Below, piece after piece: positions 6,397 through 39,411 of a DNA stretch of 64,000 bases (its first letter is position 1; each line of letters opens with the position of its first letter). The notes below the pieces were generated by a model that had not been told where the DNA came from, did not search any database, and worked only from the letters and a program-made list of their open reading frames with translations. The position numbers and the translations under genes were made by a program. Source of the DNA: a phage; assembly GCA_029945195.1 (NCBI GenBank), contig GCA_029945195.1_4117.1; one strand, given 5' to 3'.

Positions 6397-6447
6397 GTTT
6401 TACATCGAAAGGGGAAACGGTTTCCCCTGGTAATAAGGAAACAAATC

Positions 6448-6789: not shown

Positions 6790-6882
6790 TATTAAAAAAT
6801 AGTTTGACAATAGATTATAGTACTGTATAATAGTTTACATCAAGGGGAGAATAGTTCTCCCCACTAACAGAGAGAAAACAAA

Positions 6883-7095: not shown

Positions 7096-7177
7096 AAATA
7101 TTATCACAGTACTATTGACATAGTTTGATAGTACTGACATAATAACTTTTATCAACTACACTACTAAGGAATTAAAA

Positions 7178-7357: not shown

Positions 7358-7456
7358 AATATATTACCAGTACTATTAAAGATATTGACAACGTTTGATA
7401 GTACTGTATAATAAGTTTTATAAACAGTAGTTAACTTAACCTAAGAGAGAAACAAA

Positions 7457-7600
7457 ATGATCGCACTGGATTCATTCATCGACGCAGTACTGGCAAAAAC
7501 TGGCGAGGATCTTACCGCAGAACAATACGCGATGATCGAACAATGTCAACAGGACGGTAAATCGGTGAAAGATACTGTTAAGATTATCCGCAAGATGTAA
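7457..7600 (+). CDS. hypothetical small protein (47 aa, not in track)
   Basis: hand-translated; promoter TTGACA..TATAAT and SD AGAGAGA upstream. Confidence 0.45.
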   Translation: MIALDSFIDAVLAKTGEDLTAEQYAMIEQCQQDGKSVKDTVKIIRKM

Positions 7601-7606
7601 GATTAT

Positions 7607-7634
7607 AGCCCACTGGTTAACGCTGGTGGGCTTT
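7607..7634 (+). terminator. terminator-like hairpin containing Chi
   Basis: AGCCCAC/GTGGGCT stem 7607-7613/7626-7632 with Chi 7622-7629 spanning loop and 3' arm; weak T tract. Confidence 0.45.
7622..7629 (+). other. Chi site GCTGGTGG
   Basis: exact octamer. Confidence 0.6.
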
Positions 7635-7699
7635 AATTCATTACCCTATACAATGCCAGTACTAAACCGTTTATCTCGTTAGAATGCGTTACAGGACGT

Positions 7700-7903
7700 T
7701 TGACAATGATTAGCATGAAATCAGTACAAAAACAAATAGAAACATTATCAAAAATTAAACGTAAACAGTACTCCTTAGAATATACAATCAATGGTAACTA
7801 TCATCTAATGAAAGAAAATAATTTTATAGTCATTGATGAATCATTGCAAATCATTAGTATAGTACTGAAAGCATTAATCAATGACAGAAAAAAATTAAAA
7901 TAA
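7700..7903 (+). CDS. hypothetical protein (67 aa)
   Basis: ORF track; AT-rich, no strong SD. Confidence 0.35.
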   Translation: MTMISMKSVQKQIETLSKIKRKQYSLEYTINGNYHLMKENNFIVIDESLQIISIVLKALINDRKKLK

Positions 7904-7907
7904 TCTA

Positions 7908-7977
7908 TTGACAAATTATGCCAGTACTGGCATAATACTTACATCAAGACGAGAACGTCACTAACCCATAGGGTGCA
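7908..7977 (+). promoter_or_regulatory. promoter TTGACA-17-CATAAT plus conserved motif CTAACCCATAGGGTGCA
   Basis: -35 7908-7913, -10 7931-7936, motif 7961-7977. Confidence 0.5.
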
Positions 7978-8234
7978 CAAATGTAACTGTATAATATTGA
8001 TCAAAAAATGATCTGATCAATACTTGTTCAATTTGCGTAAAGTAGTATAATTCTATGCAGTTGGTTAGACGAAAGGTTATGATTAGTAGTGGAAGTGTAT
8101 AAAAATTTTCATGGTGTGGTGTTCCGCACATATGGGGATGAATATGTCGTGTCGTATGGATTGGAAAAAGTAAAAACAAGTAATATACTTGTCGCGTTAC
8201 AGTACTATAGTAATTTTATAATGAGGTTAAAATA

Positions 8235-8492
8235 ATGGCTGTAGGATTCACGAAAGATGGGGCCGAGCAAGACGAGATTAACGCAGTGATTCAGGCCGCT
8301 GTTAACCACGCTAGAACGCAAATTAACGCACAAATAGAATCACTGATACATTGCCTCGACTGCGGCGATAAAATCCCTGAGAATCGCCGCCAGGCAGTTA
8401 AGGGGTGTAAGTACTGCATAACTTGCCAGGAGGATCATGATAGTATTTTTAAACGTCAACCGCGTAATTGTTGGCATAGATCTATGAGATAA
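8235..8492 (+). CDS. TraR/DksA-family C4 zinc-finger protein (85 aa)
   Basis: CLDCGDKIPENRRQAVKGCKYCITCQ matches the CxxC-x17-CxxC TraR/DksA C-terminal zinc finger. Confidence 0.6.
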   Translation: MAVGFTKDGAEQDEINAVIQAAVNHARTQINAQIESLIHCLDCGDKIPENRRQAVKGCKYCITCQEDHDSIFKRQPRNCWHRSMR

Positions 8493-8573
8493 AAAGTATT
8501 GACAGTACTGAAAGATAGTGTATACTGTATTACATCAAGGGGAAACGTCTTCCCCTACTAAGAGGAAATGAAA

Positions 8574-8762
8574 ATGGAAAACTTATCAAGTATTTTAGTA
8601 CAAGATGATTTCGGTAATCCTGGAAGTGCTATCATCGTTCGGGGCAATAAGGCAACGTTTGTTATTGCTGGTGGGCCTGTACAGCGTAGCATTAAAAACA
8701 ATGCAGTTACAATCAATAATGTTCGCTATCGCTTAGATAAAGAATTGATTCATAAACTTTAA
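8574..8762 (+). CDS. hypothetical protein (62 aa)
   Basis: track ORF 8568-8762 trimmed to ATG 8574 (SD AGAGGA 8561-8566); hairpin 8538-8556. Confidence 0.5.
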   Translation: MENLSSILVQDDFGNPGSAIIVRGNKATFVIAGGPVQRSIKNNAVTINNVRYRLDKELIHKL

Positions 8763-8848
8763 AAAAAGTATTTGACAAAGCATCGTAGTACTGTATAATA
8801 GTTTACATGAAGGGGAGAAATGATTCTCCCCACTAAGAGGAAAGAAAC

Positions 8849-9061
8849 ATGCAAGGTCAACTAATCGTTCGTAAATGGTCTGATACTAACGAAAAACCGT
8901 GGGATGTTCAATATATCGGACCAGACGGTGTTTCACGTTATCAACCTGGCGTAACGCATAGTACTGAGCAATATGCCGCCGCTCACCGTGAACGCCTGTT
9001 AGAATCTATGAAACAGGGATTCTGTGAAAAATTCATTCAAGATCATTGGCTGAAAGATTAA
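8849..9061 (+). CDS. hypothetical protein (70 aa)
   Basis: ORF track; promoter + hairpin 8812-8831. Confidence 0.6.
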   Translation: MQGQLIVRKWSDTNEKPWDVQYIGPDGVSRYQPGVTHSTEQYAAAHRERLLESMKQGFCEKFIQDHWLKD

Positions 9062-9080
9062 TATATAAGGAGTACAGCTT

Positions 9081-9173
9081 ATGCAAATGAATCCGATGAT
9101 TGTTGTGTTAGCTGTACTTATGATCATTCATGCCATCGTAGAAGTACTAACACAATCAGGAGTAATACAATGA
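9081..9173 (+). CDS. small hydrophobic membrane peptide (30 aa, not in track)
   Basis: hand-translated MQMNPMIVVLAVLMIIHAIVEVLTQSGVIQ; SD AAGGAG upstream. Confidence 0.45.
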   Translation: MQMNPMIVVLAVLMIIHAIVEVLTQSGVIQ

Positions 9174-9340
9174 TCCAGGTGGAATTATCAGTACTGAAAG
9201 ATCTGTTTTATCGGTTAGGCACTACTGGCGAATACCCTAAAGGGGATACTGCTAAACTATACATTGCATTGGATGTATGGCAACGTAATGAACTGGCTAA
9301 CGCCTGGCGTAAAGGTAAATCAGAGGGGATTGCAGCATGA
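9170..9340 (+). CDS. hypothetical small protein (56 aa, not in track)
   Basis: hand-translated; ATGA overlap with neighbours. Confidence 0.45.
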   Translation: MIQVELSVLKDLFYRLGTTGEYPKGDTAKLYIALDVWQRNELANAWRKGKSEGIAA

Positions 9341-9486
9341 AAGAATTTTTATTCGAAGTAGTGTTCCAGGGCGTAGGAAGTAACCAACTGATACGATCAA
9401 GTGGTTACAATGTTAACCAGGCATGGAATAACATTAAACAAATGTACCCGAACGCTATCACCTATCGCAACCCAAAACAAGTTTAA
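9337..9486 (+). CDS. hypothetical small protein (49 aa, not in track)
   Basis: hand-translated; ATGA overlap. Confidence 0.45.
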   Translation: MKEFLFEVVFQGVGSNQLIRSSGYNVNQAWNNIKQMYPNAITYRNPKQV

Positions 9487-9497
9487 AAAGAATTGAA

Positions 9498-9567
9498 AAA
9501 GGGATTGACTCCGGTCAGTCCCTTTGCTATTATATATTCATTGAAACAATCTAGCCCACAGGGTGCA
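9498..9567 (+). repeat. composite intergenic repeat, copy B
   Basis: hairpin 9498-9525 with embedded TTGACT 9505-9510 and TATTAT 9528-9533; motif CTAGCCCACAGGGTGCA 9551-9567. Confidence 0.6.
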
Positions 9568-9585
9568 TAAATGTATCTATTGTTT

Positions 9586-9593
9586 GCTGGTGG
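9586..9593 (+). other. Chi site GCTGGTGG
   Basis: exact octamer, intergenic. Confidence 0.6.
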
Positions 9594-9633
9594 CTAGTAC
9601 TATCAAGTACTGAAAACTATTTTTAAAAAGTAC

Positions 9634-9661
9634 TTGCATTGTACTTAGAATCAAGTATAAT
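9634..9661 (+). promoter_or_regulatory. sigma70-type promoter (TTGCAT-16-TATAAT)
   Basis: -35 9634-9639, -10 9656-9661. Confidence 0.55.
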
Positions 9662-9668
9662 GTTTTAC

Positions 9669-9741
9669 ATCAGGACGGGGAACGAAATAAGTAACCCCGT
9701 TAAGTAGTCCAGGAGTAAGACATACGAAAACCTCCCCTGAT
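9669..9741 (+). ncRNA. conserved ~75-nt structured leader element, copy 2
   Basis: about 90% identical to 631-705 with the same flanking promoters. Confidence 0.4.
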
Positions 9742-9748
9742 AAAATAG

Positions 9749-9777
9749 TTTGACAATAGAAATTAAACGAGTATAAT
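9749..9777 (+). promoter_or_regulatory. sigma70-type promoter (TTGACA-17-TATAAT)
   Basis: -35 9749-9754, -10 9772-9777. Confidence 0.6.
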
Positions 9778-9807
9778 ACTTACATCAACCACAAAGAGGA
9801 ATACAAA

Positions 9808-10008
9808 ATGAAACATTTTACTTTCGGTGTAGTAGGCTTTACAGTATCCAGCGGCGTTTATAAATCAGAACGCGGTGCTAAAAATGCAGCAAGTCGGGCG
9901 TATGGTTCACAGCGTGACTTACAGGTCGGTTATATTAGTAACATTAATAACATGTTTATTCCTGTTTCACAGCGTAAAGCGGGTAACATGAAATGGGAAA
10001 CAATTTGA
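9808..10008 (+). CDS. hypothetical protein (66 aa)
   Basis: ORF track; SD AGAGGA. Confidence 0.6.
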   Translation: MKHFTFGVVGFTVSSGVYKSERGAKNAASRAYGSQRDLQVGYISNINNMFIPVSQRKAGNMKWETI

Positions 10009-10097
10009 TAAAATAGTTTGACAATAGTTTTTAGTACTGTATAATATTTTACATCAAGTGGGGAATAGTTCCCCACCTAACAAAGAGAGAAATTAAA

Positions 10098-10373
10098 ATG
10101 CGGATTCTACTGACAGCTAACGAAATCGAGCAAGTACTGACTACTAACCTGGAACAATGGAAACGTGATGCAGATATCCAGGCGGTACAATGGCTTAACG
10201 ATAAGTTAACGCCGGATGACTTAAGCAAGATTGTAGATCCTCAATTCTACGAAGATATTCACGACACCGCGTTAAGCGTCGAGGATGTACTTGATAAGCA
10301 CTATATTGATACTGATTTACAGGTTTACGGTCGTAAAAACTTTATCACTATTCACGACATTTACAATACTTAA
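10098..10373 (+). CDS. hypothetical acidic protein (91 aa)
   Basis: ORF track; hairpin 10059-10077. Confidence 0.6.
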   Translation: MRILLTANEIEQVLTTNLEQWKRDADIQAVQWLNDKLTPDDLSKIVDPQFYEDIHDTALSVEDVLDKHYIDTDLQVYGRKNFITIHDIYNT

Positions 10374-10460
10374 GTATTGACAAAGTATCTTAGTACTGTA
10401 TAATAGTTTACATCAAGGCAGGGGAATGGTTCCCCTCCTAACTAAAAGAGAGAAATTAAA

Positions 10461-10784
10461 ATGGCTATGATCCTTACCCAGAAAGTAGAAATGAAAATTG
10501 TAACTTCCTTTGACATTAAAGTTAATCGGTGGACTGATAGCCACGGCAATACTTACCACTCATGCTACGTGTCTGCATTGATTGGTGACCGCTGGGAAGA
10601 CCTGGGACACGAAACATTTACTTACGGTTACGGCACACAAGGCGAGTACACTGGTTTGGAAATCATTAAGGAAACTGTAATAGGTTTCAACCCGAAAGAG
10701 AAAGTACTACACAGAATTGAGAAAGAGATCAACAAAGAAATTACAGTTCGATACTACGATGTAAAACGTAAGAAAGACATGTAA
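10461..10784 (+). CDS. hypothetical protein (107 aa), paralog of 4692-5015
   Basis: shared RWTDSHGNTYHSC / FTYGY / KRKKD motifs; hairpin 10420-10436. Confidence 0.65.
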   Translation: MAMILTQKVEMKIVTSFDIKVNRWTDSHGNTYHSCYVSALIGDRWEDLGHETFTYGYGTQGEYTGLEIIKETVIGFNPKEKVLHRIEKEINKEITVRYYDVKRKKDM

Positions 10785-10883
10785 TAGAATCCATTTAAAG
10801 TACTATTTGACATTGCCCAGATAGTACTTTATAATAGACTCTAACTTGTAGTACTAATTAACTTAACTAATAGGATGTACACC

Positions 10884-11279
10884 ATGATTACTAAATTCTT
10901 CGCTACCCGTGAACAAGCTCGCATCGTTGCCCGTGAAGAAGGTGAAACATTTAAAGACATGGGCAAAGATGCACCGAAAGGACAACGCTGGGCGGTACAG
11001 TTCAAAGAGATCTCTGATATTGTGAATTCACCTGAGCCTGTACTTACAGCAGCAGAACTAAAGCAAGCTCAAGAACTGGCTGAAGTACTGAACGCTCAAG
11101 ATGACTTTTTGAAAGGTTCTGATATTGAAGTTACAGTTAACGCAAATGCATGGACTCACGCGGATCACCTGGCAAACCTTAAGCGTCCAAGTGAACTGAT
11201 TCGTAACCAGAAAGAGATCCGTCATGACCGTAAAGGAAACCGTGTAACAGTATACAGTAAACGCCGCCAGGTTATCTAA
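10884..11279 (+). CDS. hypothetical protein (131 aa)
   Basis: track ORF 10875-11279; second ATG 10884 better spaced from AGGA. Confidence 0.55.
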   Translation: MITKFFATREQARIVAREEGETFKDMGKDAPKGQRWAVQFKEISDIVNSPEPVLTAAELKQAQELAEVLNAQDDFLKGSDIEVTVNANAWTHADHLANLKRPSELIRNQKEIRHDRKGNRVTVYSKRRQVI

Positions 11280-11302
11280 TAACTTTGCAGTACTAACAAC
11301 AC

Positions 11303-11327
11303 GGCGGGAACTATTCCCGCCTTTTTT
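11303..11327 (+). terminator. rho-independent terminator
   Basis: GGCGGGAA-CTA-TTCCCGCC then TTTTTT. Confidence 0.7.
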
Positions 11328-11341
11328 ATAGGATAAACAAA

Positions 11342-11596
11342 ATGATTAAGGTTCAACTATCAAACGATAATGTATTACGGGTACACTATAAAGCCCCACA
11401 GAGAATCATCACAAAGGCCGTACAGCTTGCTAATGAGTTTATTAATGGTAGTCTATTGCCTAGGAAGTTAAGCAACGGGAAACTACGTGTAATCGACGTA
11501 GACACTAACAATAGAATAGTGATCGAGAGTACTGGAAAAATTAATCTATATGAACACCAACAATACAATAAAAAAATAAAACTAATATCACGTTGA
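11342..11596 (+). CDS. hypothetical protein (84 aa)
   Basis: ORF track; SD AGGA. Confidence 0.55.
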   Translation: MIKVQLSNDNVLRVHYKAPQRIITKAVQLANEFINGSLLPRKLSNGKLRVIDVDTNNRIVIESTGKINLYEHQQYNKKIKLISR

Positions 11597-11621
11597 CAGT
11601 ACTCAAATGTTTTAGTATTAT
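11593..11621 (+). promoter_or_regulatory. promoter TTGACA-17-TATTAT
   Basis: TTGACAGTACTCAAATGTTTTAGTA block duplicated at 11874-11902. Confidence 0.5.
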
Positions 11622-11654
11622 GTATCTATACCAACACAGAGAGAGAGAAACAAA

Positions 11655-11873
11655 ATGAAATTATCTAAAATCGAAAAGAAAACTATTGATGAAGCAGTGA
11701 AGCACGGTTATACCTTTCGTAATGATTCACACTTCACTAGTTTTCAACAGGGAAACCGTACCATCAAAAAACTCATTGATAAAGGTTTACTCACTAAGGT
11801 TGATAACGGGAACGGTGTAGAATATCAACCGACAGAAGACGCATTATCACTAAAGAAATATTCTATTATCTAA
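11655..11873 (+). CDS. hypothetical protein (72 aa)
   Basis: ORF track. Confidence 0.55.
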   Translation: MKLSKIEKKTIDEAVKHGYTFRNDSHFTSFQQGNRTIKKLIDKGLLTKVDNGNGVEYQPTEDALSLKKYSII

Positions 11874-11902
11874 TTGACAGTACTCAAATGTTTTAGTACT
11901 AT
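11874..11902 (+). promoter_or_regulatory. promoter TTGACA-17-TACTAT (duplicate of 11593-11621)
   Basis: near-identical 30-nt block. Confidence 0.5.
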
Positions 11903-11930
11903 GTACGCATACCAACACGGGGAAAACAAA

Positions 11931-12173
11931 ATGATTACTTTAGAAAAACGTATCAAAGAGACTACAACGCTGGTGGAACTGTTAACCGTTCTTAAATGCC
12001 GGGTAACTCCATTCAGTACACCGGACTTTATCAACATGGTGGACGTTAACGGTCGATATCGTATTGCGGTCGAACAAGGTACGGCAAAAGTATTCAGTAC
12101 TAAAAATACGCGTGAAGTATTCCACGCAGTTCAAGTAAAAAAAGTAGTTGCCATTGATAGTAAAGTACTGTAA
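11931..12173 (+). CDS. hypothetical protein (80 aa)
   Basis: track ORF 11874-12173 trimmed to ATG 11931 (SD GGGGAAAA). Confidence 0.5.
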   Translation: MITLEKRIKETTTLVELLTVLKCRVTPFSTPDFINMVDVNGRYRIAVEQGTAKVFSTKNTREVFHAVQVKKVVAIDSKVL

Positions 12174-12204
12174 TATAGTTTCATTAACTCAAGGAGTCAA
12201 CACA

Positions 12205-12789
12205 ATGCGTAACTATACTAAATTCATCCGTTCACTTCATGCAATGGAAACCAACAAAGAGATCCTTTCAGCTTGTCGGTTAGCTGGACTGGAGATCGTC
12301 GGTGCGGGTTCTTCCCGTATTGTATTCGCTTTAAATGATCGGTTAGTGATTAAGGTCGCGAATTGTGATGCGGGTGTAGAACAAAATGAAACTGAATGTA
12401 AGGTATGGAATTTTTTAGATTATGACCGTCCGCACCTTAAACAGTACTTTGCTAAAGTGCATATGCATTTATGCGATCCTGATAATCTGTTTATTGTTAT
12501 GGATCGTTTGAGTACTGCAAGCAAAGGCAGTGTAAAGCATGTAAACGCGTGCAATGAGTTAAAGTACAATATTAAACGTAATACGGTAGAACGCCATCAC
12601 CATTTCGCTGATGCTCTCAATCACGTTGATGATACATTATCCACACTAACGATAAGAGATATCAGAAAACAGAATATCGGCCAGGATCGCAACGGCTTGA
12701 TTAAAGTACTTGATTACGGTTTAACCCGCAATATCTGGAATCAGTACTATAAAAAACGTGATGTTAACGCGATAACTATAACACGATAA
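12205..12789 (+). CDS. minimal eukaryotic-like protein kinase fold (194 aa)
   Basis: track ORF trimmed to ATG 12205 (SD AAGGAG); Gly loop VGAGSSRIVF, LVIKV lysine, hinge FIVMDRL, catalytic loop IRDIRKQNIG, DYG; C-lobe subdomains VIII-XI absent. Confidence 0.55.
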   Translation: MRNYTKFIRSLHAMETNKEILSACRLAGLEIVGAGSSRIVFALNDRLVIKVANCDAGVEQNETECKVWNFLDYDRPHLKQYFAKVHMHLCDPDNLFIVMDRLSTASKGSVKHVNACNELKYNIKRNTVERHHHFADALNHVDDTLSTLTIRDIRKQNIGQDRNGLIKVLDYGLTRNIWNQYYKKRDVNAITITR

Positions 12790-12800
12790 AAAAGATTAAA

Positions 12801-12875
12801 AAAGGGATTGACTCCAGTCAGTCCCTTTGCTATTATATATTCATTGAGAGATAACTCACTGACCCATAGGGTGCG
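12801..12875 (+). repeat. composite intergenic repeat, copy C
   Basis: hairpin 12801-12828 with embedded TTGACT 12808-12813 and TATTAT 12831-12836; motif CTGACCCATAGGGTGCG 12859-12875. Confidence 0.6.
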
Positions 12876-12930
12876 GAAGTGTATCTATTATATAAGTATT
12901 CAGTACTGAAAACTATTTTATAAAAAGTAC

Positions 12931-12958
12931 TTGCAAACTATCTCAATGAGCGTATAAT
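12931..12958 (+). promoter_or_regulatory. sigma70-type promoter (TTGCAA-16-TATAAT)
   Basis: -35 12931-12936, -10 12953-12958. Confidence 0.6.
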
Positions 12959-13013
12959 GTTTTATATCGAGAGGGGGAAATGGTTCTCCCTGGTACTAAA
13001 AGGAATCAAGACG

Positions 13014-13235
13014 ATGACTACTATGACATGCGTTCACGCTTCAAATCTTCTGAATGATGCAGCATTTAAAGCAGGTGAAGAATATCAATGCTATCGGGAT
13101 GAAAATAAAAAAGTTTTCGTCGTTGATGCTAACGGTTTCCATATTGAATTACAATCCGGCTTCACTGGTTTAAATGGTAAATCAGTATGGGGCGTTAATG
13201 ATGATAATGGTCTTTATCACTTTATCCGTAATTAA
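13014..13235 (+). CDS. hypothetical protein (73 aa)
   Basis: track ORF 12957-13235 trimmed to ATG 13014 (SD AAAGGA). Confidence 0.55.
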   Translation: MTTMTCVHASNLLNDAAFKAGEEYQCYRDENKKVFVVDANGFHIELQSGFTGLNGKSVWGVNDDNGLYHFIRN

Positions 13236-13318
13236 GTATTGACAAAGTATATCAGTACTGTATAATAGTTTACATCAAGGGGAGAATAGTTCTCCCCACA
13301 ATAAAAGGAAACAAAATT

Positions 13319-13591
13319 ATGTCCAGCTACTCCGCTACTATGATTATTAAAGATATGAACGGTAATCCTACTTCTGCTGGTGGATCATTTGGTAACATTA
13401 ATTTAGATGGGCGGTTATCAATTGAATCAGCCATCAATGCCGCGAAAGAAGTTTTTAAGAATGAATGTACTGTAAGCAAACTGGATTATATGGGCTTCGC
13501 TATCGAGAAAACTAATCGTTTTGTGGACTACAAAAAACCACTGATGATCGATACTAACCTGAAAGCTAACGAAGTGGAATACTTATTATGA
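13319..13591 (+). CDS. hypothetical protein (90 aa)
   Basis: ORF track; hairpin 13279-13297; contains in-frame Chi 13376-13383. Confidence 0.6.
   Translation: MSSYSATMIIKDMNGNPTSAGGSFGNINLDGRLSIESAINAAKEVFKNECTVSKLDYMGFAIEKTNRFVDYKKPLMIDTNLKANEVEYLL
13376..13383 (+). other. Chi site GCTGGTGG (inside CDS)
   Basis: exact octamer. Confidence 0.55.
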
Positions 13592-13779
13592 CAGTTGAAG
13601 AAGTTAAAAAAGTACTGGCAGTACTACGCTATCATAATCATTGCAAGGTGAAGAATGATCCTGATTATGTTGATTCATCCCTGGAGGAAGACACCTTAAA
13701 CGCGATAAGCTATATGCAAACATTAGCAAAGCGTATGACCGAAAAGAATAGGCCGGACTATATCGGAAATAAAATTTAA
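13588..13779 (+). CDS. hypothetical protein (63 aa)
   Basis: ORF track; ATGA overlap with upstream gene. Confidence 0.5.
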   Translation: MTVEEVKKVLAVLRYHNHCKVKNDPDYVDSSLEEDTLNAISYMQTLAKRMTEKNRPDYIGNKI

Positions 13780-13867
13780 AAAGTACTTGCATTGTAGTTA
13801 GATTAACGTATAATGTTTTATATCGAGAGGGGGGAAATGGTTTCCCCTCAAGTCCAGGAGATACACC

Positions 13868-14131
13868 ATGAACACTATCGAAATCACTATCAATGCACAC
13901 GTATACGACAACGTAGTACTGCAAACTACTATGACCGCTAATGATACCAGTACTTTGCGGAATATCGTTATTAGTTCAGTATGTGCCGCTATCGGTGATG
14001 TTGCCCTGGAAAATGCAAAACACGTCAACGATGCCTTTACGATGTGCAAACGTGATAACTCAAAACATATCATCTGCGAAGGTTACGGCGGTGTAGAATA
14101 CAATGTTTATATGAAAAAAGTACTTGCATAA
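13868..14131 (+). CDS. hypothetical protein (87 aa)
   Basis: ORF track; SD AGGAG; hairpin about 13825-13847. Confidence 0.6.
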   Translation: MNTIEITINAHVYDNVVLQTTMTANDTSTLRNIVISSVCAAIGDVALENAKHVNDAFTMCKRDNSKHIICEGYGGVEYNVYMKKVLA

Positions 14132-14199
14132 TAACTAAAACAAAGTATAATGTTTTGCATAGGGGGAGATATCCTCCCCCACTAATAAGGAGTACTAAA

Positions 14200-14424
14200 A
14201 TGGCTAACTTTGATGAACTGATGCGGGAAGTAGCTACCCTGGCAGAAGAGAAGAAATCATTTGATTCTATCTATAACACCGCTTACAGTGATTCAGTACT
14301 GGCATGTACTCAGGATCAAAAAGATGAACTGATCGCCACCTATCATGAAGCATGGAAGTATTACCGCCAATGGGAGAAAGAAGAAAGCGAGTCTACCATC
14401 AACGGCATCAATAATCTAATCTAA
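14200..14424 (+). CDS. hypothetical protein (74 aa)
   Basis: track ORF 14155-14424 trimmed to ATG 14200 (SD AAGGAG). Confidence 0.55.
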   Translation: MANFDELMREVATLAEEKKSFDSIYNTAYSDSVLACTQDQKDELIATYHEAWKYYRQWEKEESESTINGINNLI

Positions 14425-14499
14425 AGTTTTATTTCAGTACTATTGACATAGCTTGATAGTACTGATGTAATAACTTTACTAACTACAAGGGGAAACATA

Positions 14500-14757
14500 A
14501 TGGAACAGTTCACACAATATCGGGTAAATCCTCAAGCTATGGCCTACGTAGAAGACCATAAAACATTACCAGTACAGACACCAATCAAAGGCCGTATCTA
14601 TCGTGCTATGCAGTGGAATAACGCCTATAATGGCTATAAAGCGGTATCCGCTGCAATGTACTTAGGGGATGGCGAATGGTTTGATCCAAATAATCCTGGT
14701 GCACTCGATAGTACTGAACAAATGACATGGGCCGACTATATCGAAGATATCTCATAA
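14500..14757 (+). CDS. hypothetical protein (85 aa)
   Basis: ORF track. Confidence 0.55.
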   Translation: MEQFTQYRVNPQAMAYVEDHKTLPVQTPIKGRIYRAMQWNNAYNGYKAVSAAMYLGDGEWFDPNNPGALDSTEQMTWADYIEDIS

Positions 14758-14845
14758 AAACTATTTGACAGTACTACAAGATAATGTATAATGTTTTACA
14801 TAGAGCGGGGGAATAGTTCTCCCGCACCTTTAGGAGTAAAACATT

Positions 14846-15046
14846 ATGTCAATCGCTAACGAATTGGTTGCAGTACTGAATGAAGCAAAAGCCAACTGCA
14901 TCGATGTACAGATCAAAGAGCTTGGCAATGGCTTGATCGGCTGTACTTGTTCCGTGCAAACGGCTACCGATTATCGGGAAGTGGAATCACTCGAATCACT
15001 GGTACGGTATATTAAAATCCTGGTAGAAGATTGGAGAATCATCTAA
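14846..15046 (+). CDS. hypothetical protein (66 aa)
   Basis: ORF track; SD AGGAG. Confidence 0.55.
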   Translation: MSIANELVAVLNEAKANCIDVQIKELGNGLIGCTCSVQTATDYREVESLESLVRYIKILVEDWRII

Positions 15047-15061
15047 CAAAAAAGAATAAAA

Positions 15062-15132
15062 AAAAGGGATTGACTCCGGTCAGTCCCTTTGCTATTATAT
15101 ACGCATAGACAAAAATTAGCCCACAGGGTGCA
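15062..15132 (+). repeat. composite intergenic repeat, copy D
   Basis: hairpin with embedded TTGACT 15070-15075 and TATTAT 15093-15098; motif TAGCCCACAGGGTGCA 15117-15132. Confidence 0.6.
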
Positions 15133-15175
15133 GAGAAGTATCTATAAGATAGTTAATAACGGTGAGTAACTATCT

Positions 15176-15183
15176 GCTGGTGG
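15176..15183 (+). other. Chi site GCTGGTGG
   Basis: exact octamer, intergenic. Confidence 0.6.
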
Positions 15184-15303
15184 ATGTAATGCCAGTACTC
15201 AAAACTATTTCAAAAAAAGTATTGACAAAGTATATCAGTACTGCAATAATGTATCTCGTAGGGCGGCAATGGTGCGACGGCCCACAAAGTTAGGAGATTC
15301 AAA

Positions 15304-15630
15304 ATGAGTACTTCAATCGCTATCGTTAAAGCTTTCATCCGTACCAATTTCGACCGCATTACTGTTGATGGTAATGATCGGGAAGTAGAATACTCTTTCA
15401 TCGTTGCACAAACCGCAAACGGTGCACGCTATATCTTAAACGATAGTGAAGCTAACCACTACTTCTATAATAAGGGATTACATTATATCCCTAGCGAAGT
15501 AGTCTACACTAAGATGAATAAGCTAGTAGACAAGATTAACGCAAAGGGTACTATAGATTTACAGTACTGGACCGAAACCGATCCAGAATACGGATCACAT
15601 CGTTACCTGAATCCAGGAATTAAAATGTAA
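15304..15630 (+). CDS. hypothetical protein (108 aa)
   Basis: ORF track; SD AGGAG. Confidence 0.6.
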   Translation: MSTSIAIVKAFIRTNFDRITVDGNDREVEYSFIVAQTANGARYILNDSEANHYFYNKGLHYIPSEVVYTKMNKLVDKINAKGTIDLQYWTETDPEYGSHRYLNPGIKM

Positions 15631-15719
15631 AAAGTACTTGCATTGTACTTAGAATCAAGTATAATGTTTTACATAGAGAGGGGGAAATGGTTCTCCCTCC
15701 TAAATTAAGGAGTTTTATC

Positions 15720-31195: not shown

Positions 31196-31377
31196 TGTAT
31201 GATTATGTGATGGTATAATGCTGATGAAAGAGTTATTTGAAGATCAGTTCAATACATATGTGGATAATATTCTTTATTCCAGCCGTGCTAGTCAACGAGG
31301 AAATCGTGCTTACAATATAGATTACCTATTAGTGGTGCTGAGTTCACAGTACACCTACGCTGTACAGAGGACATATT

Positions 31378-31581
31378 ATGAATAATTTTAGAGATGTTGC
31401 TAAGGAGAAGTTCAAGTGCAGTTTAGATTTTGGGTTAAATGATTTTCTGACATGCACAATGTACAGGAATGATGATTATGAGCAATCCGTAATTTCGTTG
31501 CACAGATATTTCGAAATAATTTACGCAAGATATCTTAGAAGGTTAGAGGGAATAGGGGATTGGAATTATGATTACGTTTGA
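31378..31581 (+). CDS. hypothetical protein (67 aa)
   Basis: ORF track. Confidence 0.45.
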   Translation: MNNFRDVAKEKFKCSLDFGLNDFLTCTMYRNDDYEQSVISLHRYFEIIYARYLRRLEGIGDWNYDYV

Positions 31582-31792
31582 AGAGCCGGAAGTGGCATAT
31601 TGCTTTAGTGTGAAAGGTTTTGAATTCATGATGGATTCTATTTTGAAGGATACATATTTGGTTCAGATTGCAGTTGCAGATAATACAGATAATGCATTAC
31701 AGCGAGTATTGAATATATACGAGAGGACGAGTCGAAGGCTTTGTGCAATGAAAAGGATTGAAGAAATCAAGGTTTCTAGGCTGAATAAATAG
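31568..31792 (+). CDS. hypothetical protein (74 aa)
   Basis: ORF track. Confidence 0.45.
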   Translation: MITFEEPEVAYCFSVKGFEFMMDSILKDTYLVQIAVADNTDNALQRVLNIYERTSRRLCAMKRIEEIKVSRLNK

Positions 31793-31810
31793 AGACGTTT
31801 CATTTTGACA

Positions 31811-31840
31811 GGCCGCAGGGGGGGGTCAAAAAAATTTCCG
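31811..31840. repeat. G8/A7 homopolymer element
   Basis: GCCGCAGGGGGGGGTCAAAAAAATTTCCGCTG; related inverted copy at 55905-55938. Confidence 0.5.
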
Positions 31841-31990
31841 CTGAAAAACATGCTAAGGTATATGTTTAATATAAAGTTTTATATTGTGTTTTTCAGAGTA
31901 CAGTTCATGTTTCTTGAAACAAAAAATACCCCGCCGCCGAACGTTCTCCTTATATTGGAGTTTACCTTATTAATTATAGTAGAGATTAAG

Positions 31991-32368
31991 ATGGAAATAA
32001 AATATAATGAATTTTGTGCAAGGACATGGATGTACACTGGTGAGTTAGTTACGCACTCTAACTTATACAAGGGTGATTTAAACTACGCTAGGGACAAGAT
32101 TTTAAAGTACTGGAATGCTGACTTTTATTTGATGGATTTTAGTACTGGGTTTAGGGGTAAAGCAACCGAGATGTTGGACTATACAGTACTTGATGATGCT
32201 GCACTGTTTCAGGCGGCATTAGTATTTGATAAGAAGTACATCTGTACATTAGAAGAGATGATTGAATTACAGCGTAGAATTAAATGTATTCACAGGGAAT
32301 GTATAGATATCTGGTGCAGTACTGGTGAAGATGATTTTTGTAATCATTTCAATCTAGGGGAAGTGTGA
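31991..32368 (+). CDS. family-B array protein
   Basis: track ORF 31805-32368 trimmed to ATG 31991; DDAALFQAALVFDKKY; upstream part is G-tract noncoding. Confidence 0.55.
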   Translation: MEIKYNEFCARTWMYTGELVTHSNLYKGDLNYARDKILKYWNADFYLMDFSTGFRGKATEMLDYTVLDDAALFQAALVFDKKYICTLEEMIELQRRIKCIHRECIDIWCSTGEDDFCNHFNLGEV

Positions 32369-32529
32369 TGGAATTTGATTTTTTAATATCAGTACATTCT
32401 TTTAAGCACAGTTATCAGTACTTTTGTAATTTAAACAAAGGTGATTTGATTATGGATACAGATACAGAGGCTGTATACAGTTCTAATATTCTGTACAAAT
32501 TCAGTACTAATCTGAAGGAGATTTTATGA
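32368..32529 (+). pseudogene. truncated duplicate of the N-terminus of gene 32894-33250
   Basis: first ~85 nt ~85% identical to 32894-32981 (MEFDFLIS..HSYQYFCNLNKGDL), then diverges to early stop (53 aa). Confidence 0.5.
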
Positions 32530-32894
32530 AAAAAGAAATTAGAATTCAATTCGGTATGAGGAAAAGAGAGGTCATCTGTACACTGAATCATGCGGACGTG
32601 GAAATGGGTGGTGCATTACAAAAATTCTCCCATTTTGTTCTTGTACTATATGAAAATGGGTCTTTTAAAATCTTCACATATGATGATTCAAAAAATTACC
32701 GTAATGATTTTGTAAATCTTACAGTACTGTCAGAAGAGGAATTCTTTCAGGAAAGTACTGTTTGGAATTTACCAAGAGCACCAATTGAATACGTCCGTGC
32801 TACACAGGTAGAGATGATCAAAACAATGCAGAACTATCCAGAAGATTATATGACTAAGTTTCCTGAATCTTTTAATGTAGAGGTTGAGTACTGA
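32526..32894 (+). CDS. family-B array protein
   Basis: LSEEEFFQESTVWN. Confidence 0.6.
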   Translation: MKKEIRIQFGMRKREVICTLNHADVEMGGALQKFSHFVLVLYENGSFKIFTYDDSKNYRNDFVNLTVLSEEEFFQESTVWNLPRAPIEYVRATQVEMIKTMQNYPEDYMTKFPESFNVEVEY

Positions 32895-33250
32895 TGGAAT
32901 TTGATTTTTTAATATCTACACATACGTTCAAGCACAGTTATCAGTACTTTTGTAATTTAAACAAAGGTGATTTAATGCACAGTGCAAATGAGTATATTCA
33001 TTACACTCAGGGTAAATTTACATTCATTGATTACAGTTCATTACAGTATCCACACCAAGATATGCCGGACTATACATTAATGGATACCGCAGAACTATTC
33101 CAAGAATCATTAGTATTTGATAAAAAGTACTTGTGTACATTTGAAGAAGTTATTGCAATACAAAATGAAATGAAAGAGTATGCTGCTTTGAATAAACCCA
33201 ATGCAAGTATTAATCAAGAATACAAATTCAATTTAGGAATTCAAGAATGA
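32894..33250 (+). CDS. family-B array protein
   Basis: DTAELFQESLVFDKKYLCTFEEV. Confidence 0.6.
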   Translation: MEFDFLISTHTFKHSYQYFCNLNKGDLMHSANEYIHYTQGKFTFIDYSSLQYPHQDMPDYTLMDTAELFQESLVFDKKYLCTFEEVIAIQNEMKEYAALNKPNASINQEYKFNLGIQE

Positions 33251-33606
33251 CATATGATTATTCTATGTACTATTATAAGTTACCTAAAGGATGGGACTTG
33301 TGCTGTAATCTTATTAAGGGCGACTCGGAACATGAGTTGAGTTTATATATGCATTACAAAGATTCTTGTTTTAAATTTATTCATGTATCACATGACGACT
33401 ATGACTATGAATCTGAGAGTCTTATAGATTATACAGTACTGGACGATGGCGAACTATTTCAGGCTGCATTAGTGTTTGATAAGAATAAGTACTCCTGTAC
33501 ATTTGAAGAAATGGTTTCTTTGCAAAATGAAATGAAGAGATTTGAAAAAGAAAACGTATTTAATCCATCCCCATCAAGAACGAATAATTATTATTTCAAT
33601 ATATGA
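33247..33606 (+). CDS. family-B array protein
   Basis: DDGELFQAALVFDKNKYSCTFEEM. Confidence 0.6.
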   Translation: MTYDYSMYYYKLPKGWDLCCNLIKGDSEHELSLYMHYKDSCFKFIHVSHDDYDYESESLIDYTVLDDGELFQAALVFDKNKYSCTFEEMVSLQNEMKRFEKENVFNPSPSRTNNYYFNI

Positions 33607-33615
33607 GATTATAAA

Positions 33616-34107
33616 ATGACATTACAGAGTTCATTGGAAAAAGCAAAGAAGATTCATGAGTACATGAATATGGCAAAAGAAGGTTCAGTTTACGGTGTTT
33701 TCAAAGACACAAGTACTCAATATTATGTACCAGATAACCTCCTTTATAATGACTGCTCAGATACAGAAACGTGCGTACTGGATACAGAAACGTGCATACT
33801 AGATACCGACCCTAATGATTATGAATGCTTCATTAATATGCATAATGAGTACATGGTCTATATTAATGATACAGATACCATTAACAGTACTGACAGCGAT
33901 TCCAATGACATTATAATTCCGAGTGAAGTTCTGGAAGGTCCGTGGGATAGTGAAGAGTATTACTTCCAACAAAGTACTGTATATGATAATGAAGTACTTG
34001 ATGTTATTATAATTATGTGGTACTTTAAAAGTATTGGTTCTGGGAACTTCTATTTCGATTACAAATACGTAAAGAAAACTGTAGATAACGGTATTAACAG
34101 GGGTTGA
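33616..34107 (+). CDS. family-B subfamily protein (EEYYFQQS, WYFKS)
   Basis: GPWDSEEYYFQQSTVYDNEVLDVIIIMWYFKS. Confidence 0.65.
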   Translation: MTLQSSLEKAKKIHEYMNMAKEGSVYGVFKDTSTQYYVPDNLLYNDCSDTETCVLDTETCILDTDPNDYECFINMHNEYMVYINDTDTINSTDSDSNDIIIPSEVLEGPWDSEEYYFQQSTVYDNEVLDVIIIMWYFKSIGSGNFYFDYKYVKKTVDNGINRG

Positions 34108-34108
34108 A

Positions 34109-34579
34109 ATGAGTTTAGAAAGAGCATTAGAGATTGCGAAGTTAATTGATTTATGCAGCAAAGAAATTGTAGCAAATTGTCTTAATGGATATCTATTCAA
34201 GGAAGGTAAATCATATTGTCGAATGAGATACGATGACAGTAGTGAGTACATTCACATGTATGAAGAAAACTTAGATTCTTCTGAAACAACACTCAATGGG
34301 TGTGATGTTAATTTGGAAGATAATTACATGTACTTCTGTCGTGATGCTGATATTTTAATACAAGATTCTGACATTATATCTGGTGCAGCAGAGAAACATC
34401 TTCCGTATTCAGTACTGGATAATGACTGGGGAAGTGAAGAGTACTACTTCCAGCAGAATACTATCTACGAGGAAGATGTACTTGACAAGCTTGTCATTCT
34501 GTGGTACTTTAATAATACAGATTGTCCTAGCTTCTATTTGGACTTGGATCTACTACGAGTTATTAAAGAGGATATATGA
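34109..34579 (+). CDS. family-B subfamily protein
   Basis: DWGSEEYYFQQNTIYEEDVLDKLVILWYF. Confidence 0.65.
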   Translation: MSLERALEIAKLIDLCSKEIVANCLNGYLFKEGKSYCRMRYDDSSEYIHMYEENLDSSETTLNGCDVNLEDNYMYFCRDADILIQDSDIISGAAEKHLPYSVLDNDWGSEEYYFQQNTIYEEDVLDKLVILWYFNNTDCPSFYLDLDLLRVIKEDI

Positions 34580-35019
34580 GTTTAGCAAGTGCACTTGAAC
34601 TAGCACACAGAATACATCACTTCCACGATAACATAAAAAGTGGGTTCTATGGTGATAAAGTAAGTGCATTTGGTGATGAGTATTATCTATCAGGTATAAA
34701 GACATACTCTGATGATATTTTACTTATGGGACAGGATAAAGACAATACTATACAGTACTCTTCATGTAGTCAATATACTAATTTTTTTGTATATATTCCA
34801 GGTACTAAGATTACTTTTGACACAACAAATACACCTGTTGACTTCGGGGTACTTGATGGCCCGTGGGGTACTGAAGAGTATTACTTCCAACAGAGTCTCA
34901 TTTTTAACCAAGAAATTCTTGATTCCTTGGTTGTGTTGTGGTACTTTAAGGAATTGAATTTTGAACCATTCTTTCTTGACTGGGGAGCATGTGAATATTT
35001 AAGTACAGGGGATTTGTAA
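34576..35019 (+). CDS. family-B subfamily protein
   Basis: GPWGTEEYYFQQSLIFNQEILDSLVVLWYF. Confidence 0.65.
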   Translation: MSLASALELAHRIHHFHDNIKSGFYGDKVSAFGDEYYLSGIKTYSDDILLMGQDKDNTIQYSSCSQYTNFFVYIPGTKITFDTTNTPVDFGVLDGPWGTEEYYFQQSLIFNQEILDSLVVLWYFKELNFEPFFLDWGACEYLSTGDL

Positions 35020-35507
35020 TGTCATTACAAAGTGCATTGAAAGAAGCAAAGAAGATTCATGAGTACATGATTATGGTACAGGAAGGTTCAGTACCAGGTG
35101 TATATAAAACATCTGATACTGAATTTTTTGTAAAAGACCGTGACGATTATGACGAGTCCGAGATATGTGCAGAAACATTAGTACTGCACACTGATACTGG
35201 TGACAGTGATAACTGTGAATATCATATGTACAATCAGTACATTAGTTATTGTCGTAATGAAGATATTACCATCTACAACACAGATAGTGATGCTGATGAC
35301 ACTATCATTCCTTATTCAGTACTGGAAGGACCGTGGGATAGTGAAGAATATTACTTCCAGAATAGTACGTTGTACAATGAAGAAGAATTAGATGTTATTG
35401 TAATTATGTGGTATTTCAAAAGTATTGACTCCAGTAGTTTCTATTTTGATTATGAATATGTAGAGAATACTGTAGGAGAAGGTAATGTCATTACAAAGTG
35501 CTCTTGA
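35019..35507 (+). CDS. family-B subfamily protein
   Basis: GPWDSEEYYFQNSTLYNEEELDVIVIMWYF. Confidence 0.65.
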   Translation: MSLQSALKEAKKIHEYMIMVQEGSVPGVYKTSDTEFFVKDRDDYDESEICAETLVLHTDTGDSDNCEYHMYNQYISYCRNEDITIYNTDSDADDTIIPYSVLEGPWDSEEYYFQNSTLYNEEELDVIVIMWYFKSIDSSSFYFDYEYVENTVGEGNVITKCS

Positions 35508-35937
35508 AAAAGCAAAAGAACTACATGGATACTTTGACGATATAAAGGCAGGAAAGTTCAAAGAAGTGTACAAAGCCGAGAACGGCAACTACTACAAGGA
35601 TGAAATGTATAATAACTCCGTTGGTGTAAGGGTTATTCTTGGGTTGAATTCCAATAGTCCTATATCGTTTTCTGAATACAATAGAGATGCAGAATTTATT
35701 AGTTATGTTGAAAATGGTAGCATTCGTTTTATTAATCGCAAAAAACCATTAATTTTGAATTATGAAGTACTGGAAGGTCCGTGGGATAGTGAAGAGTATT
35801 ACTTCCAAAACAGTACTGTTTACGATGATGAAGTACTTGAAGCATTAGTTATTATGTGGTACTTAAAGAGTGTTAACTGTCCTCGATTTTATTTGGATTT
35901 CGAAGAACTTCGTAAAGATCCAGAAGGTATAGAATGA
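35485..35937 (+). CDS. family-B subfamily protein
   Basis: GPWDSEEYYFQNSTVYDDEVLEALVIMWYL. Confidence 0.65.
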   Translation: MSLQSALEKAKELHGYFDDIKAGKFKEVYKAENGNYYKDEMYNNSVGVRVILGLNSNSPISFSEYNRDAEFISYVENGSIRFINRKKPLILNYEVLEGPWDSEEYYFQNSTVYDDEVLEALVIMWYLKSVNCPRFYLDFEELRKDPEGIE

Positions 35938-37900: not shown

Positions 37901-38450
37901 TTTAGATATTGCGTTTGAACGTATGGTAATTTTAATGCAATGTGCAGAAATGCATGAAACAATCCGTCGCACCAAAGGGATTGAATATACAAGTAAACTA
38001 TTCTCATACGAAAGTCGTCGAGGGATGGATCATTTTTACTGCACTGATTGTTCAAAGTTTTCAGTACTGAAATATTATCATCCTACTGTTTCCAATAATA
38101 GTTTAATATCCACATATGACGGTGTTCTGTTTAGTGTAATGTATGACACATTACATCCATCAATTTCAATCTATAAAGATTGCGATAGTAGTTTATCGTA
38201 TATAATTGAAGATTACTTATCTCCTAATACTGAAGAGAATATTTTTCAGAACAGTGTGTTGCATGATGAATTAAGCATAAAATGCATCTATATGTTCAAT
38301 AAGTTAAAAGAGTACGCCGATAATAATTACTTAATTGATAAGTTAGCAGTATTGTCTGTTTCCGTTTTTAATACAAATGACATTGATATGAAATACTATA
38401 ATGAGATTTGTAAAGTACATCATATGTATAAGGAACTATTATGTCAATAA
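37890..38450 (+). CDS. family-B array protein
   Basis: NTEENIFQNSVLHDE. Confidence 0.55.
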   Translation: MYDDLDIAFERMVILMQCAEMHETIRRTKGIEYTSKLFSYESRRGMDHFYCTDCSKFSVLKYYHPTVSNNSLISTYDGVLFSVMYDTLHPSISIYKDCDSSLSYIIEDYLSPNTEENIFQNSVLHDELSIKCIYMFNKLKEYADNNYLIDKLAVLSVSVFNTNDIDMKYYNEICKVHHMYKELLCQ

Positions 38451-39043
38451 ATGCAAATAAATGTTGTAGTGCAGATGTGCATTTGTTTTTTAAGAAATTA
38501 GCAAATGATATTATATATATGCAGGAAATGATTTATCACAAACGAGCGGATTTAGAAAAAGCATTAGTACAGTTCTCATTTATGCTTGATGGTGATATAT
38601 TTCTAGAGAGTGATGCATTGCGAATAGTATTAGATAAAAATGCTAAAAGATTTTTATTTCATATAGATAATAAATTATGTTCCTCCGTATGTCGTACTTT
38701 TTATAATCGTGATTCGGACTTATATCAATTCCTTTATTCTAAAGGTGCAGTAGAAGCATCATATGGTGATGGTTATGCCCTAGGAAAGAGTATTCCATTT
38801 ATGAAATCATTTAAAATAGAACACATCAGTACTGATGAAGATGCAATGTTCACAAATGATATAACTATGGGACGTGAAGATGCAATGCGATATATTACAA
38901 ATTCTATGCATACATTCTTTCAACGAACAGAATTTGATAATGTATATATATCAAATGTAAATATTTTCAATGACCTGTGTCAGTACTTGAGAAGTGTTTG
39001 TGATTTTGATGAAAGCTATTGTAAGCTTTATACTGAGGTATAA
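38441..39043 (+). CDS. hypothetical array protein (motif degenerate)
   Basis: ORF track; tandem position. Confidence 0.45.
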   Translation: MSINANKCCSADVHLFFKKLANDIIYMQEMIYHKRADLEKALVQFSFMLDGDIFLESDALRIVLDKNAKRFLFHIDNKLCSSVCRTFYNRDSDLYQFLYSKGAVEASYGDGYALGKSIPFMKSFKIEHISTDEDAMFTNDITMGREDAMRYITNSMHTFFQRTEFDNVYISNVNIFNDLCQYLRSVCDFDESYCKLYTEV

Positions 39044-39048: not shown

Positions 39049-39411
39049 ATGAACACATTAAGTATTACATACTATACAACTAAAAAATTAGTTACTTGTT
39101 TAATATCATTGAAGACAAACCATGATGATATGTTTGATATGGCTGCATATGAATTAGAATTATCAGAAGATGGCTTCAAGAGCTATGAAGTATATAGCTA
39201 TGTTCGTGAAGATGTAATTGACACTACACTAATGCAAGAGGATGAGTTATTCCAAGAAAGTTTAGTATGGGATAATAAGTACGATTGTAACTTTGATTTC
39301 TTATGTTTAATCCAGAAAGAAATGAAAAGAATCTTTGATAATTATCCAATCAAACGTTTCAGTACTGCACCTGAGCAATATAAAAGGATTATATTCACCT
39401 ATGAAGATTGA
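39049..39411 (+). CDS. family-B array protein
   Basis: MQEDELFQESLVWDNKY. Confidence 0.6.
   Translation: MNTLSITYYTTKKLVTCLISLKTNHDDMFDMAAYELELSEDGFKSYEVYSYVREDVIDTTLMQEDELFQESLVWDNKYDCNFDFLCLIQKEMKRIFDNYPIKRFSTAPEQYKRIIFTYED

Follow-up and report, generated by a model that had tools for sequence, protein, structure and literature searches.

A chimeric open reading frame and an 85-nt direct repeat as the probable scar of a gene insertion in an Asteriusvirus-type jumbo coliphage

We analysed a 64,000-nucleotide (nt) stretch of phage DNA (contig GCA_029945195.1_4117.1 of GenBank assembly GCA_029945195.1; hereafter the window), in which a short open reading frame (ORF), named F, repeats the start of a downstream gene, named P. 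Most probably, this feature is the scar left by a single ancient event, in which foreign phage DNA entered the 5' end of P through microhomology-guided illegitimate recombination between diverged Asteriusvirus genomes. We put the probability of this reading at roughly 0.85. The inserted DNA consists of a complete gene, named X, and the 3' end of another gene, named Y, which is found intact in front of X in phage A4. F is the chimeric ORF at the left junction. By its sequence, the window belongs to a jumbo coliphage of the Asteriusvirus type (the 121Q/PBECO4/G17 group). The 4.5 kb around the locus matches phages BF17, G17 and SHEFM2K at 99.3% and 121Q at 94%, and the match to PBECO4 (98%) covers only part of the query. 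A total of 36 records match the locus, all of them Escherichia or Salmonella phages of 310-386 kb.

The features of the locus are listed here in order of position, with the strand after the coordinates.

31991-32368, +: gene A, 125 amino acids, family phrog_15629; the upstream neighbour on the recipient side
32366-32450, +: R1, the upstream repeat copy, equal to TGA plus the first 28 codons of P
32368-32529, +: F, 53 codons with an ATG start; chimeric junction ORF
32443-32450, +: left junction, GATTTGAT; GATTT is common to P and Y (5-nt microhomology), and the next G is of the Y type
32448-32529, +: 3' remnant of Y, homologous to A4_364 (L010 3467-4045); it carries the Shine-Dalgarno sequence of X, AAGGAG, at 32515-32520
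32483-32484, +: site of a 63-nt (21-codon) in-frame deletion, relative to 121Q and the metagenome contigs L025 and L027
32526-32894, +: gene X, 122 amino acids, family phrog_13866; inserted cargo gene
32892-32898, +: right junction, the stop/start overlap TGATGGA (7-nt microhomology)
32892-32976, +: R2, the downstream repeat copy, which is the true 5' end of P
32894-33250, +: gene P, 118 amino acids, family phrog_15629; intact recipient gene
38441-39043 and 39049-39411, +: the pair Y'-X' (200 and 120 amino acids), syntenic with Y-X of A4 and diverged from it

A chimeric ORF between the start of P and the end of Y

R1 and R2 are identical at 78 of 85 nt (92%; BLAST E 8e-31), are spaced by 526 nt and are the only two copies within the window. 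A sequence-only reading of this DNA had noticed that the 53-codon ORF repeats the start of gene 32894-33250. The repeat is real and measures 85 nt, but its identity is 92% and not about 85%; that reading had allowed for an identity much lower than its own estimate, and the value is higher. Downstream of the 85 nt, the similarity ends sharply and the two sequences are unrelated. Upstream of the repeat, the sequences resemble each other only weakly, owing to the paralogous 3' ends of the genes that precede the two copies (A and X). R1 retains the ribosome-binding context and the start codon of P.

Codons 1-28 of F duplicate the start of P, and codons 29-53 are homologous to the C-terminal end of Y. 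The ORF had been described as diverging to a stop after the repeated part; its last 25 codons are instead homologous to the 3' end of Y. The stop codon of gene A (TGA, 32366-32368) shares one base with the ATG of F, and the same overlap exists with the ATG of P at sites that lack the insertion. At its other end, the stop codon of F overlaps the ATG of X (ATGA, 32526-32529), and F and X are read in different frames. Both this overlap and the open frame of F are kept in all carriers of the insertion, in a 53-codon and a 74-codon form alike.

The donor order is preserved in phage A4. There, a homologue of X (A4_365, 90% protein identity to the X of the window) sits at a different locus and is preceded by Y (A4_364, 192 amino acids), the stop codon of which overlaps the start of X. 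The last ~147 nt of the A4 Y gene align base for base with the non-P part of the 74-codon F in 121Q, and the shorter F of the window also aligns with the 3' end of A4 Y. In three Logan contigs from other samples, an intact Y of 198 amino acids is followed by X and then by a gene named Z. Residues 2-191 of Y align with the window ORF 38441-39043 (24% identity, E 7e-9), the part corresponding to the F tail included, and X aligns with the adjacent ORF 39049-39411 (29% identity, E 2e-11). The A4 genes flanking Y-X are collinear with the window at ~37.0-42.4 kb. By this synteny, the native home of the Y-X pair is ~6 kb downstream, and what lies at 32.4-32.9 kb is part of the A4-type allele, copied to an ectopic site. 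The full-length homology of Y to Y', together with the synteny in A4, indicates that Y is the parent of the F tail and not the reverse.

Both joints can be read base by base. At the left joint, P reads ...AAAGGT GATTT AATGCAC, Y reads ...CAACAG GATTT GATTATGGAT and F reads ...AAAGGT GATTT GATTATGGAT. All 8 nt of GATTTGAT are present in some P alleles (fEgEco12 and R2 of Turkey3). At the right joint, TGATGGA is common to the X|Z boundary of the donor (A4) and to the A|P boundary of the recipient. Similarity breaks sharply on either side of the insert. The site was found to contain neither a transposase or homing endonuclease nor terminal inverted repeats, a promoter or a terminator cassette, and a promoter/terminator scan of 31.0-37.6 kb gave counts at the level of shuffled sequence.

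A single event probably produced this arrangement from a donor with the A4-type order Y-X-Z and a recipient with the order A-P-Q, where Q is the gene at 33247. Strand exchange or DNA synthesis would leave the recipient at GATTT, after nucleotide ~85 of P, and enter Y ~147 nt before its stop codon. Copying would continue through the end of Y and the whole of X and would re-enter the recipient at TGATGGA. Re-entry would occur 85 nt upstream of the point of exit, and this stagger would double the first 85 nt of P. P is intact and now has the 3' end of X as its upstream context, and X has brought its own Shine-Dalgarno sequence within the Y tail, which may be the reason why this tail has persisted. 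The new ORF, F, combines the old start signals of P with the Y stop codon overlapping the ATG of X. F is probably translated, since it inherits the former start context of P, and it is probably a by-product of the junction and not a gene under selection. The simplest route would be replication in a mixed infection with two template switches, and two successive illegitimate or homeologous crossovers would give the same product. The joints are identical in all carriers examined, indicating that the event happened once.

Presence, absence and later history of the cassette

Homology to gene A is found in 34 distinct records. The unique part of the inserted unit (32451-32891) is present in 12 distinct records, namely 11 carriers of the insertion and the donor-type A4. 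Among 33 related deposited phages, 11 have the insertion (slurp01, 121Q, BF17, ECO103 4-12-1, EC22.5-2, SHEFM2K, G17, phAPEC6, CRJP21, Sharanji and Turkey3) and 22 have an empty site. Thus, the comparison of copy number with related phages, which had been proposed as a check, does reveal a polymorphism. The same architecture is found in the 11 carrier genomes, which were sequenced independently in various laboratories and countries, and in metagenome contigs from ENA.

In PBECO4 and E9.1, the alignment with the window reaches 32450 and restarts at 32892, so that precisely the 526-bp unit is missing and a single repeat copy is present. Single-copy empty sites are likewise found in SP27, fEgEco12, ph0011, UE-S1, JP4, UB and EC.P1, and single-copy genomes join the left flank of R1 to the right flank of R2. 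E9.1 is empty even though it is close to the window, with flanks that are 99-100% identical. The distant relatives JNE01 and Turkey5, used as outgroups, have a single intact P (MEFEFVISTHSF...) and no cassette. No further carriers or intermediates were found in X-based scans of JGI metagenome contigs and GTDB genomes. A scan of IMG/VR for the junction pattern matched only 121Q and one giant-virus metagenome contig, which we treated as a chance match.

The cassette is 96.6-99.1% identical among carriers, even where the flanks are only ~85-87% identical, as in Turkey3. R1 of Turkey3 is that of the single copy in fEgEco12, a cassette-free relative, while its R2 is that of slurp01. The conserved cassette within diverged flanks and the R1/R2 pattern of Turkey3 indicate that the cassette moved between lineages by homologous recombination in the flanks. 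Precise loss of the cassette by recombination between R1 and R2, which would restore the ancestral order, is equally possible, and both spread and loss would then have a share in the present distribution.

We also found several changes that postdate the insertion. F has 74 codons in 121Q, L025 and L027. The short form, with the 63-nt deletion, is found in the window, slurp01, Turkey3, BF17, phAPEC6, CRJP21 and the metagenome contig L026. In 121Q, the 63-nt segment is flanked by imperfect direct repeats of 15 nt (TAATGTTCTGTGCAA / TAATATTCTGTACAA), and the alignments indicate that F lost these 63 nt after the insertion, between the repeats. The earlier description of F as a truncated fragment in decay therefore agrees with our data to the extent that F shrank further by this in-frame deletion. 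A divergent patch in R1 (ACGGTCAAGGGTGCACCTCAGTACCTT) is found in 121Q (L003 3568-3652), CRJP21 (L015 2067-2151), L025 and L027. It encodes TVKGAPQYL or TVNGAPQYL, alters 6 of 9 otherwise conserved residues and is found in no P allele; it could reflect either relaxed constraint or conversion from an unsampled allele. Relative to A4, 18 of 150 nt are changed in the Y-derived tail of F, against 20 of 369 nt in X (Fisher p = 0.014, computed with 147 and 366 nt). This roughly twofold greater divergence of the tail hints at relaxed constraint on F.

X is not always intact. In L025 (2501-2794) and L026 (68-361), a 1-nt deletion within its FQ motif (GAATT-TTTCAGG) truncates X to 97 amino acids. The deletion occurs in two separate ENA metagenome assemblies, one with the long and the other with the short F, and X is evidently dispensable. 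R1/R2 identity ranges from 71 to 82 of 85 across carriers, and the cassette alleles had diversified before the present carriers split. The insertion is older than the divergence of the cassette alleles and of the long and short forms of F, and it is not fresh, contrary to what had been thought from the window sequence.

The 85-nt repeat can also break short-read assemblies, as seen in the record of Sharanji (OR545507, positions 31-490 and 349589-350032). This linear record begins and ends inside R1, with gene A and R1 at one end and the cassette at the other, and its ends apparently overlap by ~77 nt. This suggests that the assembly was broken at the 85-nt repeat. The Sharanji paper gives direct terminal repeats of 20.7 kb. 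The genome papers of fEgEco12 and Sharanji contain no discussion of the paralogs or of the cassette indel.

Alternative explanations and comparison with known systems

Several points weigh against the insertion as we describe it. Only a single donor-type lineage is known (A4 and contigs 97% identical to it), so that the polarity of the tail is deduced from the Y/Y' homology and synteny instead of from many independent Y genes. In most alleles, the left microhomology spans just 5 nt and could be partly coincidental. At the right joint, the 3' ends of A and X are paralogous and weakly similar, and recombination there may have been homeologous rather than strictly illegitimate. The R-type alleles TTCTTTT and TACTTTC are both found in empty genomes, so that single-nucleotide polymorphisms in the repeat cannot separate primary from secondary empty sites. 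Finally, all carriers have kept F open and overlapping with X, which would also fit an F that is in use, and ratios of nonsynonymous to synonymous polymorphism (pN/pS) of 0.2-0.5, on few substitutions, do not discriminate selection on F.

This last point raises the alternative that F is a selected small protein or a needed translational leader, acting by ATGA coupling into X or as a P-hairpin modulator of P. Not only is the ORF intact at both lengths, with a conserved ATGA overlap, but its 63-nt deletion is in frame and it inherited the start context of P. However, a strong Shine-Dalgarno sequence of its own, AAGGAG, stands 5 nt in front of the ATG of X. Judged from the model of P, F would keep just the first beta-hairpin of the P fold, and the R1 patch described above changes most of the conserved residues in four carriers. 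The greater divergence of the Y-derived tail, the absence of the cassette from two thirds of the related phages and the frameshifted X in two metagenome assemblies also argue against a selected F. We consider such a role unlikely.

Alternatively, Y-X could have been copied ectopically within one genome, from the native locus, without any co-infecting phage, and the native pair could later have been replaced by Y'-X'. The native locus is only ~6 kb away and on the same strand, and the high mosaicism of the region makes a later replacement plausible. Against this, no carrier examined has a second close copy of X: each record has it in one place, and there is one high-identity match in the window. 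The resident Y'-X' pair has only 24-29% protein identity to the insert, and therefore an extra replacement step would be needed. An intragenomic origin thus appears distinctly improbable.

A more speculative view takes the insertion as given and concerns what the 85-nt repeats do now. They could serve as recombination arms, making the Y tail and X an exchangeable cassette that is precisely excised, perhaps as a 526-bp circle comparable to the promoter-early stem-loop (PeSL) mini-circles of T4-type phages, and re-inserted at any intact start of P, with F perhaps kept for expression of X or modulation of P. If true, jumbo phages would have a gene-cassette system based on coding sequence and kept as a balanced presence/absence polymorphism. 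We regard this as a long shot.

There is very little to recommend a local tandem duplication, in which unequal crossing-over within the paralog array would have left a truncated and decayed upstream P next to X as an old array member. The 85-nt repeat does truly duplicate the 5' end of P, the family of X is distantly related to that of P (25% amino acid identity) and the region is rich in paralogs. However, the idea failed our tests. The sequence past R1 is not P-like and matches the Y 3' end and X of A4, and X is 90% identical to A4_365, which lies elsewhere, and just 25% identical to P. The 526-nt unit is neither a multiple of the adjacent P-Q unit nor homologous to it, and the outgroups and 22 relatives are wholly without X at the site. 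The neighbouring genes, with 32-37% protein identity and no high DNA identity, bear no trace of a recent local duplication. The idea of ongoing unequal recombination in the array does not hold for this feature, because the sequence between the repeats copies nothing that adjoins P and the paralogs are ancient.

That the feature arose in sequencing or assembly, from a repeat that was collapsed or chimeric or from a frameshift error within a longer gene, has next to no probability: the Sharanji record is linearised exactly inside the repeat, and the repeat can perturb short-read assembly, but the same architecture in 11 phage genomes and in independent ENA contigs rules out the split gene that had been considered, F and X lie in different frames with a canonical ATGA overlap conserved throughout, and the repeat copies differ at 3-14 positions and so were not collapsed in assembly.

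An insertion of foreign phage DNA places the locus among known types of phage mosaicism. For lambdoid phages and mycobacteriophages, novel joints are inferred to be made by illegitimate or homeologous recombination between co-infecting phages (discussed in Martinsohn et al. 2008, PMC2327257; Moura de Sousa et al. 2021, PMC8136500). Like these, the present locus has a sharp change of similarity, a few bases of homology and one joint at a gene boundary with a stop/start overlap. Its insert is 94-99% identical between genomes with far more diverged flanks, and there is no dedicated recombination site or enzyme. Unlike in the usual mosaic joint, both joints, the intact donor and the empty recipient are all extant, which allows a base-by-base reconstruction; the joints are staggered on the recipient, giving the 85-nt duplication and the chimeric ORF; and the host is not a temperate phage but a virulent jumbo phage of ~350 kb.

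The hyperplastic regions of T4-type phages undergo modular shuffling mediated by PeSL cassettes (Arbiol et al. 2010, PMC2839356; Comeau et al. 2014, PMC4122927). The present case is similar in that close relatives differ by the gain or loss of one or two ORFan genes, small and non-essential, within a plastic part of the genome of a large virulent myovirus, and in that the flanking direct repeats could excise the cassette as a circle. However, the repeats here are 85 nt of coding sequence made by the insertion itself, not pre-existing promoter/stem-loop cassettes. A sigma-70-like promoter with a stem-loop does not occur at the indel borders: the motif has 21 matches on the + strand, all within 60-15,674. 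These 21 regulatory cassettes (for example 1876-1957, 6804-6881 and 13239-13316; 0.44 expected by chance) are an observation in their own right. They consist of TTGACA or TTGCAA, a 17-nt spacer, GTATAATGTTTTACAT and a G+C-rich stem-loop (GGGGAGAA-ATGG-TTCTCCCC), resemble the T4-type PeSL in layout and are confined to the first quarter of the window.

In the concept of Hendrix and Juhala, morons are extra genes inserted between two conserved phage genes. X is like a moron in being an accessory gene from a family of unknown function that is cleanly absent from close relatives. It differs in that no promoter or terminator of its own was detected, in its insertion inside the 5' end of P and in being co-oriented and tightly coupled with its neighbours. 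As in a transposon insertion, a direct target duplication flanks the insert and the empty sites have one copy. Target-site duplications made by transposases are typically 2-14 bp, and the 85-nt duplication is far longer; moreover, the cassette ends have no terminal inverted repeats, F and X have no Pfam match, and the cargo is a gene fragment with its neighbouring gene. A homing-endonuclease gene was not found in or next to the insert, as Pfam gives no domain for A, F, X, P or Q and PHROGs assigns only families of unknown function.

The feature is therefore a well-resolved instance of a textbook-type mosaic joint, and it reveals no new mechanism or function. As a fossil of accessory-gene gain in a virulent jumbo phage it is unusually complete: public sequences document the donor order and the empty site, both joints together with the target duplication, the by-product ORF and how it was later trimmed, and the spread or loss of the cassette. 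The case will not surprise specialists; its use lies in annotation and in illustrating step by step how a jumbo phage gains a gene. At least some of the short hypothetical genes of Asteriusvirus are junction artefacts, which bears on the annotation of the ~80% of ORFs without known function.

The surrounding gene array

Every gene of the region lies on the + strand, closely packed, with overlapping stop and start codons. PHROGs profiles assign A, P and Q to phrog_15629, X to phrog_13866 and five longer genes to phrog_9317, all families of unknown function. The matches are full-length for P (E 8e-57), A (2e-58), Q (8e-60) and X (3e-43), and F matches positions 1-39 of the phrog_15629 profile only (E 1e-9). 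Pfam gave no match for any of the genes at the locus. The AlphaFold model of P is confident (predicted local distance difference test, pLDDT, 85) and consists of a beta-sheet and two helices.

The array members are less alike than the sequence-only reading had stated. The three genes at 31991, 32894 and 33247 (A, P and Q), which it called close paralogs, have pairwise identities of only 32-37% in protein and ~60% in DNA, and the five 150-amino-acid genes at 33616-35937, which it called near-clones, have 27-54% protein identity. Judged from these values, the array paralogs are old, and each of the five has its own ortholog in related phages.

We also identified a wider superfamily of small proteins with the core motif EE-x-[FY]-F-Q-x-S-x-V-[FYW]-D, here termed the FQ motif. 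It covers phrog_15629, phrog_13866 and phrog_9317 and comprises 18 + strand ORFs between 22,254 and 51,843 (for example those at 22254, 24169, 35934, 36553, 39049, 41175, 47201 and 51346). Two copies read EEGYFQGS and EEMYFQGS, which formally fit a tobacco etch virus (TEV) protease-type site; we presume that this is a coincidence. Y had been a candidate member, as its 'AFQQDLIMD' resembled the motif, and was dropped when hhalign against the 150-amino-acid paralogs gave a probability of 0.2%. A PDB search with the fold of one member (P) gave no informative match. Homologous folds are present in RaK2 and in Yersinia phages.

Comparison of 31,200-35,937 with 18 related loci reveals an extreme fine-scale mosaic, in which the identity to one relative can change between ~85% and 100% over only a few hundred bases. 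In BF17, the identity to the window is 85% upstream and rises to 99.7% in gene A before falling to 96.8% in the cassette. A further indel or replacement polymorphism affects the first phrog_9317 gene (33616-34107), in place of which fEgEco12 (L007 3787-4313), ph0011 (L008 3649-4172) and Turkey3 (L009 3752-4278) have two small genes of 345 and 186 nt. Within the same gene of the window, there is a 21-nt tandem duplication at 33760-33801 (GATACAGAAACGTGCGTACTG / ...ATACTA, 90% identical), which yields the in-frame protein repeat DTETCVL-DTETCIL. In UE-S1 (L006 2503-3231), A and P are annotated as one fusion of 243 amino acids: one extra base at the A|P boundary (GGAGAAAGAG vs GGGGAAGAG) abolishes the stop/start overlap, and this may be a real fusion or a sequencing error. 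The sole sizeable intergenic gap in the packed array is the ~200 nt upstream of A (31,793-31,990). It contains a run of eight G and a CCGCCGCCG tract amid AT-rich DNA, and small-ORF calls there differ between annotators.

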